Assembly (NCBI RefSeq): GCF_030384885.1
Contig: NZ_CP128613.1
Origin: Escherichia coli
Lineage (GTDB): Bacteria > Pseudomonadota > Gammaproteobacteria > Enterobacterales > Enterobacteriaceae
Length of the DNA: 64,000 nt
Direction: 5' to 3' (one strand)
Below, piece after piece: positions 6,342-59,383 of this stretch; the stretch's first letter is position 1, and every line of letters starts with the position of its first letter. The position numbers were made by a program, and so were the translations under genes. A model generated the notes under the pieces. The model was not told the origin of the DNA, did no database searches, and saw only the letters and a program-made list of their open reading frames with translations.

Positions 6342-7379
6342 ATGGTCATCAACTGCGCCTTTATTGGCTTCGGCAAAAGCACCACCCGTTACCATCTGCC
6401 GTATGTACTTAACCGCAAGGATAGCTGGCATGTCGCGCATATTTTTCGCCGCCATGCGAAGCCGGAAGAACAGGCTCCCATTTATTCCCATATTCATTTC
6501 ACCAGCGATCTCGACGAAGTGCTAAACGATCCCGACGTTAAGTTGATTGTCGTCTGCACTCATGCGGACAGCCACTTCGAGTACGCGAAACGCGCGCTGG
6601 AAGCCGGGAAAAATGTGCTGGTCGAAAAACCGTTCACCCCGACACTTGCGCAGGCGAAAGAGCTGTTTGCGCTGGCGAAAAGCAAAGGGCTGACCGTTAC
6701 GCCGTATCAGAATCGTCGCTTTGACTCCTGTTTTCTGATGGCGAAAAAAGCGATTGAAAGCGGCAAGCTGGGAGAGATTGTCGAAGTGGAAAGCCATTTT
6801 GACTATTACCGCCCGGTGGCAGAAACCAAACCTGGACTGCCGCAGGATGGCGCGTTCTATGGCCTTGGTGTGCATACCCTCGACCAGATAATCTCGCTGT
6901 TCGGTCGCCCGGATCACGTCGCTTATGACATCCGCAGCCTGCGTAATAAAGCCAATCCTGACGACACCTTCGAAGCGCAGCTGTTTTATGGCGATCTAAA
7001 AGCCATCGTCAAAACCAGCCATCTGGTGAAAATCGATTATCCGAAATTTATCGTTCACGGGAAGAAAGGTTCGTTTATTAAATATGGTATCGACCAGCAG
7101 GAAACCAGCCTGAAGGCTAATATTATGCCGGGCGAGCCGGGATTCGCAGCGGATGATTCGGTCGGTGTGCTGGAGTATGTCAATGACGAGGGCGTTACGG
7201 TCAGAGAAGAGATGAAGCCGGAGATGGGCGATTACGGACGCGTTTATGATGCGTTGTACCAAACCATCACCAACGGTGCACCAAATTACGTCAAGGAATC
7301 TGAAGTTCTTACCAATCTGGAAATCCTTGAACGCGGTTTTGAGCAAGCCTCTCCCTCCACAGTGACTCTTGCGAAGTAA
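6342..7379 (+). CDS. yhhX: Gfo/Idh/MocA-family NAD(P)-dependent oxidoreductase YhhX
   Basis: Start set at MVINCAFIGFGKSTTRYHLPY (Rossmann GxGxxG-like N-terminus); 345 aa. Confidence 0.88.
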   Translation: MVINCAFIGFGKSTTRYHLPYVLNRKDSWHVAHIFRRHAKPEEQAPIYSHIHFTSDLDEVLNDPDVKLIVVCTHADSHFEYAKRALEAGKNVLVEKPFTPTLAQAKELFALAKSKGLTVTPYQNRRFDSCFLMAKKAIESGKLGEIVEVESHFDYYRPVAETKPGLPQDGAFYGLGVHTLDQIISLFGRPDHVAYDIRSLRNKANPDDTFEAQLFYGDLKAIVKTSHLVKIDYPKFIVHGKKGSFIKYGIDQQETSLKANIMPGEPGFAADDSVGVLEYVNDEGVTVREEMKPEMGDYGRVYDALYQTITNGAPNYVKESEVLTNLEILERGFEQASPSTVTLAK

Positions 7380-7501
7380 GTTTGATGACCTCTCGAATAG
7401 TTCAATTTTTTTGAACAGAGGGGTCAATTTTCACCCTCTATCATCCCAGGCGGATCGGGTCCACACTAAGCCCATCGAAATCATTCAGGGGGCGAATACA
7501 A

Positions 7502-8197
7502 ATGATCTACTTACGCAAAGCAAATGAACGTGGTCATGCAAATCATGGCTGGCTGGACTCCTGGCATACTTTCTCTTTTGCCAACTATTACGACCCGAAC
7601 TTTATGGGCTTTTCCGCGCTGCGCGTGATTAACGACGACGTGATTGAAGCAGGGCAGGGCTTCGGCACTCACCCGCATAAAGATATGGAAATTTTGACCT
7701 ACGTGCTGGAAGGTACTGTTGAGCACCAGGACAGCATGGGCAATAAAGAGCAGGTTCCGGCGGGCGAGTTCCAGATTATGAGTGCGGGTACGGGTATTCG
7801 TCACTCAGAGTACAACCCAAGCAGTACCGAGCGTCTGCATCTGTATCAGATCTGGATCATGCCAGAAGAAAACGGCATTACGCCACGTTATGAACAACGT
7901 CGCTTCGATGCCGTACAGGGTAAACAGCTGGTGCTTTCGCCTAATGCGCGAGATGGTTCGTTGAAAGTGCATCAGGATATGGAGCTGTACCGTTGGGCGC
8001 TGGTGAAAGATGAGCAGTCGGTGCATCAGATTGCCGCTGAACGCCGCGTCTGGATCCAGGTGGTGAAAGGCAATGTCACCATTAACGGCGTGAAAGCCTC
8101 GACCAGCGATGGTCTGGCAATCTGGGATGAGCAGGCAATCTCCATCCATGCGGATAGCGACAGCGAAGTGTTACTGTTCGATCTGCCGCCGGTTTAA
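7502..8197 (+). CDS. yhhW: pirin-like quercetin 2,3-dioxygenase YhhW
   Basis: 231-aa ORF; cupin metal-binding His motif (GFGTHPHKDMEILTYVLEG). Confidence 0.9.
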   Translation: MIYLRKANERGHANHGWLDSWHTFSFANYYDPNFMGFSALRVINDDVIEAGQGFGTHPHKDMEILTYVLEGTVEHQDSMGNKEQVPAGEFQIMSAGTGIRHSEYNPSSTERLHLYQIWIMPEENGITPRYEQRRFDAVQGKQLVLSPNARDGSLKVHQDMELYRWALVKDEQSVHQIAAERRVWIQVVKGNVTINGVKASTSDGLAIWDEQAISIHADSDSEVLLFDLPPV

Positions 8198-54624: not shown

Positions 54625-56693
<2,069 letters not shown>

Positions 56694-56695
56694 AT

Positions 56696-56731
56696 AAAAC
56701 GGGAGGAGAAGGAGCCTCCTGTTTTATTTTG
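56696..56731 (+). terminator. envZ rho-independent terminator
   Basis: aaaacgggagg-agaaggag-cctcctgtttt followed by atttt. Confidence 0.7.
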
Positions 56732-56856
56732 TGCACTCAGTATCTACTGAATGAATACGGTCTCAGACATCGGCACCATACGAAGTAAAGTGTACTGTAA
56801 GCTGATTGCAGGCTAGCGTATCCTGATTAGTAAAAGCACACTAAAGGAATAGCTTG

Positions 56857-58140
56857 ATGCAACTTACCAACGAAGAACAAGTACAGATTGCTCGTATAAA
56901 AGAAAAAATCCCACGCATTGCCGCACTGGATCCTGAATGTAAGTTATTCGGTTCTGAAGGTTGGAAATATCAATGGCCGAAGCCTGCCAGCGAGGCGGAA
57001 ATAGCTTCCTGGGAGAAAAAACATAGCGTCACTTTGCCACGGGAATATCGAATTTTTCTTCGCTATATCGCTAATGGCGGTCCGGCACATGCCTACGGTC
57101 TTGAATCTTTAGGCGGTACAGATATTTATGGCGATATAACAAAAGAAAGCCCTGTACCGCTTTATATGACGCAGCAGGATGTTGATGTGTTGAATGCTGG
57201 CCGTACAGAAGATGATGAAGAATATAGTTTTTTTGACGGCGCATTGACCATTCTCACCCTGGGATGTACTTATGATATTTGCCTGGTGGTGACGGGGCAG
57301 TATCGCGGAAGGTTAATGCTGACTGATGGTGATGAAGATTATCCGTTTGATTTTATATATGATAAAAATTTCCTCAACTGGTATGAACGCTGGCTGGACG
57401 ATTTTATTGCTGGCATGAGTATGAAGGGTTTCGATAGAAGTTTGCCAGGAACGCAAATTCAACTGCGTGAGTGGTTTTTAACTGAGAAAATCCCGGATTT
57501 ACGTAGATCCATTTTATTCTCGCTATGCCGTTTTCCACAGATAGAACCCGAAACTTTTGCCCTTTGGGAACATGTTTGCCGTACAGAGAATGATAAAGAA
57601 TTGTGTGAAGAGGCATTCATAAGATTACGCCAAAAAAAAGTTTCTTGTGCTGCAGATATTTTTCGACTCTATTTTGCAATGTCAGATGAATTACGTGATA
57701 TTGCTATTAAAGATCTCCGTTTTGCCTGTAGAGATAGTGTGGTGAATATTGAGGATTATATTCATTCACTGTTAATAATAATGCCTGAACTTGACGATGA
57801 CACTCTATCCTCAGCTGTCTTTGCTATACGAGAAACAGAGTATAATAAATATGATACTTTTCTGCCGCTTCTCGAACGTATCACTGATGACCGTCAGCAA
57901 ACATTATTGTGGGCGATGAGTAAGGCGCCTGATTTCAATGAAAGCCGAGGATTCGTTGAGTTGGTATTACCGCTTTTTGCATCATCAAAGATGGAGAATG
58001 TAAGGAAGGCTATTTTGTTGCTCATTGAAGTTAAAGATAATCGTATTCCACCATTGGTTGATGAAGCTGCAACTCGTTTCCCTGAACTGACCATTTTACG
58101 AGAAAACTACTATCTCAGGACGTGGGGACATAAGCCATAA
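56857..58140 (+). CDS. islet 2 ORF A: SUKH (SMI1/KNR4)-like N-terminal domain fused to a C-terminal alpha-helical repeat (HEAT/ARM-like) domain
   Basis: ATG at 56857 with AAAGGA Shine-Dalgarno 8 nt upstream; N-terminal motif SWEKKHSVTLPREYRIFLRYIANGG and YDKNFLNWYERWLDDFI typical of SMI1/KNR4; C-terminal half has repeated helix pairs. Confidence 0.7.
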   Translation: MQLTNEEQVQIARIKEKIPRIAALDPECKLFGSEGWKYQWPKPASEAEIASWEKKHSVTLPREYRIFLRYIANGGPAHAYGLESLGGTDIYGDITKESPVPLYMTQQDVDVLNAGRTEDDEEYSFFDGALTILTLGCTYDICLVVTGQYRGRLMLTDGDEDYPFDFIYDKNFLNWYERWLDDFIAGMSMKGFDRSLPGTQIQLREWFLTEKIPDLRRSILFSLCRFPQIEPETFALWEHVCRTENDKELCEEAFIRLRQKKVSCAADIFRLYFAMSDELRDIAIKDLRFACRDSVVNIEDYIHSLLIIMPELDDDTLSSAVFAIRETEYNKYDTFLPLLERITDDRQQTLLWAMSKAPDFNESRGFVELVLPLFASSKMENVRKAILLLIEVKDNRIPPLVDEAATRFPELTILRENYYLRTWGHKP

Positions 58141-58177
58141 ATTAATGGTTCAGAAATGATCTAACGCGGAGAAAAAT

Positions 58178-58708
58178 ATGATCAGGGAACATATTCAGCA
58201 AGCGATAAATAATAGGTTAGCATTTGATGGCCCATTCAATGTTGTTCCTGAACCTGCAAGCACTGCGTTTGATAGCCGGATCCCGACATTGAAAAACGGT
58301 GTCTGGCAGAAGGCCAGCCCTATGTTGCAGGCGCGTTTTGCACATTGTGGACGTTGGTTAAGCGCTACACATGGAAGCTGGCTAAGTATAAGTGACATGG
58401 AAACGCTTTGGCAGGAACACATAGAAGATACGTTTCTTGATGAAATCAAAATGAATGCTGTAGCTTCAAGTGATAATTGGGATAACCATGCCTTGGGACT
58501 ATTTCGTTCTCATCGCCTGTCACTTTTTGCCGGTAGTGATTACAGTTATGAAATGGTTTTTCTCCTTTGGCTAGATAGTACCGTTGAGCCAGAGGTCTGG
58601 GTTTATGACTGCAATGGGGAATCACGTTATAAAGATCTTAATGATTACCTGAATGCATATATTAATGATGACGTAAGCGCCTGTGAGCGCTCTTGGCGAG
58701 TAGAATGA
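58178..58708 (+). CDS. islet 2 ORF B: hypothetical 176-aa cytoplasmic protein
   Basis: ATG with GGAG Shine-Dalgarno; no confident family assignment by eye; the C-terminal EPEVWVYDCNGESRYKDLNDYLNAYIN loosely resembles the C-terminal signature of SUKH-type immunity proteins. Confidence 0.55.
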   Translation: MIREHIQQAINNRLAFDGPFNVVPEPASTAFDSRIPTLKNGVWQKASPMLQARFAHCGRWLSATHGSWLSISDMETLWQEHIEDTFLDEIKMNAVASSDNWDNHALGLFRSHRLSLFAGSDYSYEMVFLLWLDSTVEPEVWVYDCNGESRYKDLNDYLNAYINDDVSACERSWRVE

Positions 58709-59331
58709 ATAGCCCCCCTTGCCCCTTTGATCCACAAACCGCACATTACCTCGGCACAGTGCAAATCCACTACACCTCAACCACCTTCAACGCTGCCGTT
58801 AAGCATTATACCTATCACATTAAAAAGCGTTTTAAAGGGGTTAAATGGGGAATTGGTACCGCTGGCTTATTGGCTATATTGCCCATGATCCCACAATGGT
58901 TGAAACCTTCTCATGACTTTAAACTCAACGCAATCAGTACGTTAATTCTTCTATTAATGTTGCCACTCCTCTTATCAATGTTCCTGTTAATCAGCAGAAG
59001 AATTAACGATTTTAAGTCAAAAACAAAGCAAGTTACTTTTACGAAACCCGTGCGTTATGCGTTTTATTTCGAGGGGATTGTTTTTTATGAATCTCATCAG
59101 CAGGGCATACTTCGCTGGGAAGATTTTTATGGCATTGAGTATGAAGAAGATTATTTGTGGCTTTTTCTGCATTTACCGAAGAGTTTTCCCAGAGAAGCGA
59201 CGAAAGCGTTTTGCGATATTTTCATTCCCACCAGTGCGATAAAAGCGCAGCCTGAACTGGATACGTTTTTTCGTGAAACACGCCACTCGCTGGATTATCT
59301 GTTTGTCCCGTTTAATTCTGACAGAAAATAA
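58705..59331 (+). CDS. islet 2 ORF C: small membrane protein, possibly YcxB-like (two TM helices plus a PH-like domain)
   Basis: ATG at 58705 overlaps the ORF B stop (ATGA); two hydrophobic helices (GIGTAGLLAILPMIPQWL; ISTLILLLMLPLLLSMFLLI) followed by a soluble domain. Confidence 0.6.
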   Translation: MNSPPCPFDPQTAHYLGTVQIHYTSTTFNAAVKHYTYHIKKRFKGVKWGIGTAGLLAILPMIPQWLKPSHDFKLNAISTLILLLMLPLLLSMFLLISRRINDFKSKTKQVTFTKPVRYAFYFEGIVFYESHQQGILRWEDFYGIEYEEDYLWLFLHLPKSFPREATKAFCDIFIPTSAIKAQPELDTFFRETRHSLDYLFVPFNSDRK

Positions 59332-59334
59332 CAT

Positions 59335-59362
59335 ATCCCCCGTATCTGGTGAAACGGGGGAT
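59335..59362 (-). terminator. pck rho-independent terminator (also ends islet 2)
   Basis: atcccccgt-atctggtgaa-acgggggat perfect stem; T-rich on the minus strand after the hairpin. Confidence 0.7.
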
Positions 59363-59383
59363 TTCGTCGCTTAACTTATCGGA

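Follow-up and report, generated by a model that had tools for sequence, protein, structure and literature searches.

We consider it likely that three co-directional genes found between envZ and pckA in an Escherichia coli genome, here called ORF A, ORF B and ORF C, form an orphan-immunity islet, in which ORF B encodes an orphan immunity protein, ORF C encodes an autonomous membrane protein of the YcxB family, and the short overlap between the two genes reflects operon packing. The analysis covered a stretch of 64,000 nucleotides (the window), to which all positions refer.

A low-GC islet between envZ and pckA

The gene order in the window was greB-ompR-envZ, followed by ORF A-ORF B-ORF C, and then by pckA on the minus strand, yhgE and hslO. 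The accessory islet (56735-59383, approximately 2.65 kb, no strand assigned) takes the place of most of the envZ-pckA spacer of strain K-12, in which the convergent envZ and pck genes were only 75 bp apart according to the spacer alignment. The GC content of the islet was approximately 38-45%, compared with 52-58% in the flanks. Its left border is a terminator-like hairpin located 3' of envZ (56704-56720, plus strand), which was detected by a terminator scan and is conserved in the aligned spacer of K-12. Near the other end, a GC-rich hairpin (59335-59362) lies where ORF C and pckA converge, with folding energies of -18.3 and -19.6 kcal/mol and z-scores of -3.3 and -4.5 on the plus and minus strands, respectively. 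This hairpin probably acts as a terminator common to both genes.

Of 5426 complete E. coli genomes, 18 carried the islet, at the same site each time. Only ORFs A, B and C are located between envZ and pckA, with no recombinase or mobility gene among them. The Rfam scan of the islet gave sub-threshold chance matches only, and the promoter scan of the plus strand 5' of ORF A gave nothing convincing. Neither ORF B nor ORF C was present in the phage collection; the plasmid collection lacked ORF C and contained one partial match to ORF B, on a Sphingomonas plasmid. The islet is a horizontally acquired unit of three genes, with the ORF B/ORF C region forming its distal two-thirds. The dN/dS ratios were 0.17 for ORF A, 0.35 for ORF B and 0.29-0.47 for ORF C (below 0.5 in five comparisons), indicating that the islet genes are kept by selection yet evolve fast.

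The first gene of the islet, ORF A (56857-58140, plus strand; 427 aa), encodes an N-terminal SUKH-1 (SMI1/KNR4) domain followed by a C-terminal part of approximately 250 aa without a Pfam match. The domain was assigned by Pfam (SMI1_KNR4, 2.7e-6; SUKH_6, 3.4e-5), with the PGAP name as further evidence, and the gene has its own Shine-Dalgarno sequence (anti-SD energy of -5.6 kcal/mol). As BLASTP detected no similarity between ORF A and ORF B, the two are not recent duplicates. BLASTP also detected no similarity between ORF A and the HEAT-like domain encoded at the corresponding locus of E. coli A30 (see below), indicating that the C-terminal part of ORF A is a different module. ORF A is the second immunity-type gene of the islet. 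An earlier note on this DNA had taken the protein encoded upstream of ORF B to be sensor-like, a description that gives way to the SUKH/SMI1-KNR4 assignment. EnvZ is encoded in a separate operon, closed by its own terminator-like hairpin.

The ORF B family and an Rhs toxin domain

ORF B (58178-58708, plus strand) encodes a soluble protein of 176 aa that is a "hypothetical protein" in RefSeq, and the description of it in the earlier note as soluble and unassigned still stands for Pfam and NCBIfam. The protein was confidently found to have the SUKH (SMI1/KNR4) alpha/beta fold. Its family comprises 34 clusters and has a sharply conserved motif, EPELWVYDxNGESRYKxLxxYLxAY. At the level of sequence profiles, SMI1_KNR4 and SUKH_3 to SUKH_6 did not recover ORF B, none of 31 family members reached a SUKH family of Pfam, and the hhalign comparison of the family with an alignment of four SUKH sequences was not significant (E = 0.43). 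The family thus differs from the SUKH superfamily in that its members reach no SUKH model of Pfam or NCBIfam. NCBIfam also gave no match for ORF A, ORF C, or the Rhs toxin C-terminal domain, HEAT-like domain and Salmonella cassette proteins described below.

The genomic neighborhoods of ORF B homologues pointed to a function. In P. parmentieri, a homologue with 56% identity immediately follows the gene for a PAAR-Rhs toxin in an Hcp-VgrG-DcrB-Rhs cluster. When one genome per species was scanned, the family was present in 20 species, and in six of them (Serratia rubidaea, Lonsdalea, P. zantedeschiae, Azovibrio, Burkholderia turbans and Aggregatibacter) the homologue was located 10-110 nt 3' of an Rhs gene encoding a common C-terminal domain of approximately 125 aa. 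The Rhs C-terminal domains adjacent to ORF B homologues were 56-94% identical to the Pectobacterium one, and the Rhs-linked homologues were 47-56% identical to ORF B. E. coli 05-3629 has a VgrG-DcrB-Rhs cluster encoding the same domain of approximately 125 aa, followed by the gene for a 176-aa protein that is 54% identical to ORF B. In total, an Rhs gene for this domain directly preceded the ORF B homologue at eight loci, each from a different species or strain, and at these loci the family lies directly 3' of, and co-varies with, one specific toxin domain. Together with the fold, this linkage indicates that the ORF B family is likely to be the cognate immunity partner of this Rhs C-terminal toxin domain. 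The domain was also found in an Rhs protein of Salmonella enterica, and sequence searches of Pfam, NCBIfam and PDB detected no relative of it.

The toxin domain of approximately 125 aa is absent from the 64-kb window, leaving the immunity gene there without its cognate effector. A toxin-immunity module of the E. coli 05-3629 type was present in 70 of the 5426 genomes (at least 99% identity), and the carriers listed (about 69 of the 70) did not overlap with the 18 genomes harboring the islet, although these genomes may have a diverged copy of the toxin at another site. In addition, a homologue of ORF B in Bacteroidales was located in an integrase-linked array together with Imm17, Imm19, Imm21, Imm32 and SMI1_KNR4 genes. 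The Rhs-linked homologues, the absence of the toxin from the window and the occurrence in the Bacteroidales immunity array mark ORF B as a probable orphan immunity gene. It differs from SUKH immunity proteins in that the partner toxin domain is unclassified and in that ORF B itself is an orphan, with no toxin nearby.

These features resemble those of the arrays for acquired interbacterial defense described in gut Bacteroidales (AID, and rAID where associated with a recombinase; Ross et al., 10.1101/471110; PMC12247911), which likewise consist of immunity-type genes without cognate effectors, and one of which includes the above-mentioned ORF B homologue. In rAID arrays, orphan immunity genes with 35-62% identity confer protection, as demonstrated experimentally for SUKH orphan genes (PMC12247911; 10.1101/471110). 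The islet is likewise patchily distributed among strains, foreign in composition, and contains an immunity gene diverged (54%) from the cognate one. In contrast to these arrays, it consists of only three genes, has no recombinase or other mobile element, occupies a fixed chromosomal site between envZ and pckA in Enterobacteriaceae, and ends in a gene for a YcxB-family membrane protein, which belongs to no recognized immunity family; protection by the islet is a prediction.

In the proposed mechanism, ORF B would bind and neutralize the matching Rhs C-terminal toxin when a competitor injects it. The toxin would be the C-terminus of approximately 125 aa of an Rhs protein linked to PAAR or VgrG and delivered by the T6SS, and strains that have the islet without the toxin would be protected. 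Among the known carriers of the toxin are other strains of E. coli, as well as Salmonella, Serratia and Pectobacterium. ORF B has only 54% identity to the cognate immunity protein of E. coli, so that any cross-protection against the E. coli toxin is hypothetical.

Structure and start site of ORF C

ORF C (58705-59331, plus strand) was assigned as a YcxB-family membrane protein of 208 aa starting from ATG 58705. The AF2 model (pLDDT 80), which was built on a shallow alignment of 17 sequences, consisted of a strand at residues 15-21, a helix at residues 25-42, a transmembrane hairpin, a beta-rich domain and a terminal helix. The N-terminal strand, YLGTVQI (58747-58767, plus strand), corresponds to invariant columns of the family and to blocks of the model with pLDDT above 90, and it presumably pairs with the C-terminal PH-like domain. 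The first transmembrane helix (residues ~44-66; 58834-58902, plus strand) was modeled as helices 44-58 and 61-66, and the second (residues ~72-100; 58918-59004, plus strand) as helix 76-107. The earlier note had predicted two strongly hydrophobic helices. This was true of the second, for which the 19-residue Kyte-Doolittle mean reached 2.62; the first was only moderately hydrophobic (approximately 1.25 by hand calculation, under the threshold of 1.6), yet the model showed it as a helix, and its hydrophobic character was shared by the rest of the family. The PH-like domain, corresponding to the C-terminal domain of YcxB (residues ~108-192; 59026-59280, plus strand), was placed in the cytoplasm. 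The K/R-rich flanks before the first and after the second helix suggested an N-in/C-in topology, with both soluble parts of the protein cytoplasmic. ORF C would thus form a two-helix hairpin in the inner membrane, with the N-terminal strand and the PH-like domain facing the cytoplasm.

The top Foldseek matches of ORF C were all annotated as YcxB, in agreement with the YcxB/PH-like soluble domain suggested in the earlier note, and the identical 208-aa protein is named "YcxB family protein" in UniProt. The match to Pfam PF14317 was sub-threshold (E = 0.56), and one of 17 relatives reached this model at E <= 0.001 and six at E <= 0.1. ORF C shares with the YcxB family (PF14317) the two N-terminal transmembrane helices followed by a C-terminal PH-like beta-sandwich, and its structure was similar to that of annotated YcxB; in contrast, its subfamily has an extra conserved strand and helix N-terminal to the transmembrane hairpin. 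The ORF C family is tiny, with 10 cluster representatives among 1.84 billion. The literature search on YcxB found no functional study.

The start of ORF C differs among databases. RefSeq/PGAP places it at GTG 58759 (190 aa), whereas the 208-aa UniProt/AFDB entry A0A1Q6B7U4 and the ENA gene calls begin at the ATG. This ATG (58705-58707) is in frame with the long ORF ending at 59331. The invariant block YLGTVQIHY in the columns of the ORF C family is located 5' of or across GTG 58759, as is the conserved block FDPQTAHYLGTVQIHY, in which the orthologues differ by synonymous third-position changes. The GTG start would cut the YLGTVQI strand, modeled with high confidence, and L017, an orthologue from Escherichia sp., has GTA in place of this codon. 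In addition, an in-frame stop codon is located directly 5' of the equivalent of the ATG in L017 and in strain G50. These comparative data favored ATG 58705 over GTG 58759, and the RefSeq start is probably truncated. Initiation at an upstream TTG (58693), which the earlier note had raised as an objection to its own reading, was rejected, as this codon is CTG in E. albertii.

The ORF B/ORF C junction

The 3' end of ORF B reads GTA GAA TGA, in which the last A of GAA and the following TG form the ATG of ORF C. The ORF B stop codon (TGA 58706-58708) and the ORF C start codon thus overlap as ATGA (58705-58708, plus strand), as noted earlier at the same coordinates, and the same overlap is seen in E. 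albertii. The ATG of ORF C had no Shine-Dalgarno sequence, with an anti-SD duplex energy of -3.0 kcal/mol corresponding to the 32nd percentile of islet positions, compared with -6.6 kcal/mol for ORF B. This was also the case in E. albertii, Salmonella and G50. In L017, a GGAGAG motif was located approximately 13 nt 5' of the start (-6.4 kcal/mol), and two of the stand-alone ORF C homologues had strong Shine-Dalgarno sequences (-7.7 and -8.6 kcal/mol), with a weaker one in a third (-4.0 kcal/mol). Where ORF C follows another gene, its start was within 4 nt of the preceding stop codon at every such locus examined.

The stop/start overlap and the lack of a ribosome-binding site of its own make it plausible that translation of ORF C is coupled to that of ORF B, as the earlier note had proposed. 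ORF C translation would then proceed by termination-reinitiation, probably depending on ribosomes that finish whichever gene precedes it. The overlap itself is ordinary, because ompR and envZ in the same window overlap identically (55341-55344) and because the orthologous B/C junctions vary, being ATGA in the window, TAGTAGATG in L017 and TAAAGCATG in G50, with a range from -4 to +4 nt. Overlaps of the ATGA type occur frequently, and the one between ORF B and ORF C carries no signal beyond chance. The B/C pair resembles coupled pairs of the ompR/envZ type in the identical overlap and in the downstream gene without a good Shine-Dalgarno sequence, but differs in its variable junctions and in that the coupling is a deduction. 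The fixed stoichiometry of the two products claimed earlier does not follow from the overlap, as OmpR and EnvZ are produced in very unequal amounts despite theirs. The overlap implies neither a complex of ORF B and ORF C, nor fixed stoichiometry, nor a toxin-antitoxin relationship.

Distribution of ORF B and ORF C

Every close homologue of ORF C examined adjoins pckA, and the genes 5' of it vary. The window and E. albertii had the order SUKH-B-C, and L017 and L023 the order HEAT-like-B-C. A HEAT::C fusion of 346 aa, represented by three protein clusters, occurs in E. coli A30, and a C::HEAT fusion of 365 aa has the same HEAT-like domain in the reverse order. In Salmonella, ORF C is preceded by genes for a 152-aa protein, CdiI_5, a 91-aa ORF (called in L006 only) and a CdiI_5 fragment; in strain G50, it follows an ORF B remnant with an internal deletion. 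The distant homologues (26-30% identity) were solitary, with housekeeping genes on either side. The cassette array at envZ-pckA thus varies, but always ends with ORF C. The linkage of ORF B to ORF C has been kept across several diverged versions of the islet in Escherichia, as explained by shared descent, although the two may also cooperate.

Of the 20 species with ORF B, both genes were found at the same locus in two, both Escherichia, and ORF B occurred without ORF C in the remaining 18; the profile search for ORF C in the ORF B loci outside Escherichia found none. Conversely, ORF C was found without an intact ORF B in at least five arrangements, so the two genes did not co-occur as a two-gene module. 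These distributions indicate that the two genes do not constitute a dedicated pair. Frameshifted alleles of ORF C were present in some lineages (P0041, P0047 and P0050). Together with the dN/dS ratios, these alleles indicate that ORF C is maintained but dispensable and evolves fast.

Alternative explanations

Our best guess at the function of ORF C, although less likely than not, is that it protects the cell at the membrane as an immunity or other protective factor of this defensive islet. In such a role, ORF C would be an orphan immunity protein acting in the inner membrane against a pore-forming or ionophoric effector, and the islet would comprise three independent immunities. The constant position of ORF C at the end of arrays of immunity-type genes (SUKH, CdiI_5 and HEAT-like), its low GC content as in the rest of the islet, its fast evolution and the frameshifted alleles are all consistent with this. 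Pore-forming colicins and some effectors of CDI and the T6SS usually have immunity proteins embedded in the membrane, which provides a precedent. However, no toxin gene was found beside a member of the ORF C family, close or distant, and a large polymorphic-toxin survey contained no mention of YcxB and no PH-domain or bPH immunity family; as in the functional literature searched, no link between YcxB and a toxin system emerged.

It seems rather unlikely that ORF C is an unrelated passenger or a decaying gene, with an overlap devoid of regulatory meaning. The frameshifted alleles, the absence of ORF C from more than 99% of E. coli genomes and its fairly high dN/dS would fit such a gene, but the ratio stayed below 0.5 in all five comparisons, intact ORFs occur in Escherichia, Salmonella and other Enterobacteriaceae, and the fold is confident and conserved.

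We regard as improbable the proposal that ORF C serves as an anchor in the membrane, or as an adaptor, for the soluble cassette protein encoded before it, for example by retaining immunity proteins at the inner membrane, the site at which injected toxins arrive. PH-like domains typically act as binding modules, and the one in ORF C could have this function. The fusion to one HEAT-like domain, placed N-terminally in some proteins and C-terminally in others, also fits an adaptor, as does the close spacing from the preceding stop codon at all such loci, four of which lack a Shine-Dalgarno sequence. On the other hand, the HEAT::C fusion of A30 resembles a simple in-frame deletion of ORF B when compared with the L017-type islet, and the distant homologues of ORF C are solitary. 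A broader version, with equally slim chances, would make ORF C, as the constant and translationally coupled terminal gene, a dedicated membrane platform for interbacterial defense, with a cytoplasmic PH-like domain to which exchangeable soluble immunity cassettes (SUKH, HEAT-like and CdiI) are fused or recruited. This would place the recruitment at the inner membrane, the entry point of T6SS and CDI toxins. If it were true, it would provide the first function for the YcxB family and a cassette-exchange hotspot at envZ-pckA in Enterobacteriaceae.

The abortive-infection or toxin-antitoxin-like module suggested in the earlier note, in which ORF C would be a membrane-disrupting effector checked by ORF B or co-assembled with it in a fixed ratio, is very improbable: the ATGA overlap, the missing Shine-Dalgarno sequence, the adjacency retained in the window-type, E. 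albertii and L017-type islets and a sub-threshold PADLOC match of the transmembrane region of ORF C to PycTM (E = 0.02) are in its favor, but ORF B is paired with the Rhs toxin domain instead in loci among the 18 species in which ORF C is missing, intact ORF C occurs without a functional ORF B in A30, Salmonella and G50 and alone in distant homologues, ORF B has an immunity-type SUKH fold, PADLOC gave no match for ORF A or ORF B, no known defense or toxin-antitoxin family model of PADLOC, Pfam or NCBIfam recovered the pair, and the phage and plasmid matches were not significant. The distributions of the two genes contradict this reading, which is largely refuted.

Implications of the probable orphan-immunity islet

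The orphan-immunity islet, which we consider the likely explanation, provides a likely function for the hitherto unannotated ORF B family, namely immunity, conferred by SUKH-fold proteins, to a so far unclassified toxin domain of Rhs proteins. The comparison of the orthologues also corrected the RefSeq start of ORF C, which is probably truncated. The envZ-pckA site is a small hotspot in Escherichia and Salmonella, in which differing immunity cassettes precede a constant YcxB-family gene. Furthermore, the results suggested a toxin/orphan-immunity polymorphism within E. coli, in which 70 of the 5426 genomes have the toxin module and 18 others have only the diverged immunity homologue. From such a polymorphism, the outcome of T6SS competition in the gut could be predicted at the level of strains.

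Rhs proteins adjacent to ORF B-family genes

A putative toxin domain of approximately 125 aa, with the sequence pattern ...GHTPDVGWGG...SRVNSY[IV]GGATQ..., was detected at the C-terminus of Rhs proteins in E. coli 05-3629 (L042 1855-6909), in Pectobacterium (L008 3710-8525), and in the comparison loci L024, L025, L028 and L037-L039. The gene next after this domain belonged to the ORF B family in every case. A search of Pfam, NCBIfam and PDB found no relative of the domain. The E. coli module composed of the Rhs toxin and the ORF B-family gene was present in 70 of 5426 complete genomes.

Junction of ORF B and ORF C

The ATGA motif at the junction of ORF B and ORF C is a routine one, as ompR and envZ, serving as an internal control in the same window, are joined by the same type of overlap (55341-55344). 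The start codon assigned to ORF C by PGAP was GTG 58759, giving a product of 190 aa (RefSeq WP_227456980.1 in NZ_CP027579.1). This assignment is probably a mis-annotation, because the 18 codons removed by it (58705-58759) contain an invariant and structurally confident beta-strand.

Fusions of ORF C homologues and the C-terminal part of ORF A

A HEAT-like domain of approximately 140 aa was joined to the YcxB-like protein (C) in both orders, HEAT::C and C::HEAT. Such fusions were found in E. coli A30 (L002 5566-6606), in the ORF C-family proteins P0036, P0038 and P0039, and in P0053 (L012 8001-9098), while the same domain was encoded by a free-standing gene in Escherichia sp. (L017 7483-7911). 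The A30 fusion looks like the product of an in-frame deletion of ORF B. The approximately 250 aa of ORF A located C-terminal to the SUKH-1 domain (57370-58140) matched nothing in Pfam and showed no resemblance to the HEAT-like domain of A30. An Rfam match to CyaR/RyeE, antisense within ORF A (57607-57682, minus strand), reached 23.5 bits (E = 0.37), where the gathering score is 47, and this sub-threshold match is most likely due to chance.

Variation and decay of the islet

At the envZ-pckA site of Salmonella enterica (L005/L006 4348-5996), the YcxB-like gene was preceded by a different cassette set, which began with a 152-aa ORF, continued with a CdiI_5 gene and an ORF of 91 aa (called only in L006), and ended with a CdiI_5 fragment. 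The homology to ORF C began only from YLGTVQIHY, suggesting a recombination breakpoint within the 5' end of C. In E. albertii (L003/L004), a gene pair of RelE-like (PF06296) and HTH proteins was located between ORF C and pckA (7101-7773), and yhgE was missing downstream of pckA; ORF A was split into two pieces of 296 aa and 132 aa in L003. Enterobacteriaceae bacterium G50 possessed an ORF B remnant (L007 5745-5998), retaining the 5' and 3' ends with the middle missing, directly 5' of an intact ORF C. In alignment A1 of ORF C-family proteins, the alleles P0041, P0047 and P0050 ended prematurely by a frameshift after ...EGIVF, entering the alternative frame that corresponds to the ORF at 59057-59242 in the window. 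These frameshifted alleles represent pseudogenisation of ORF C in some lineages.
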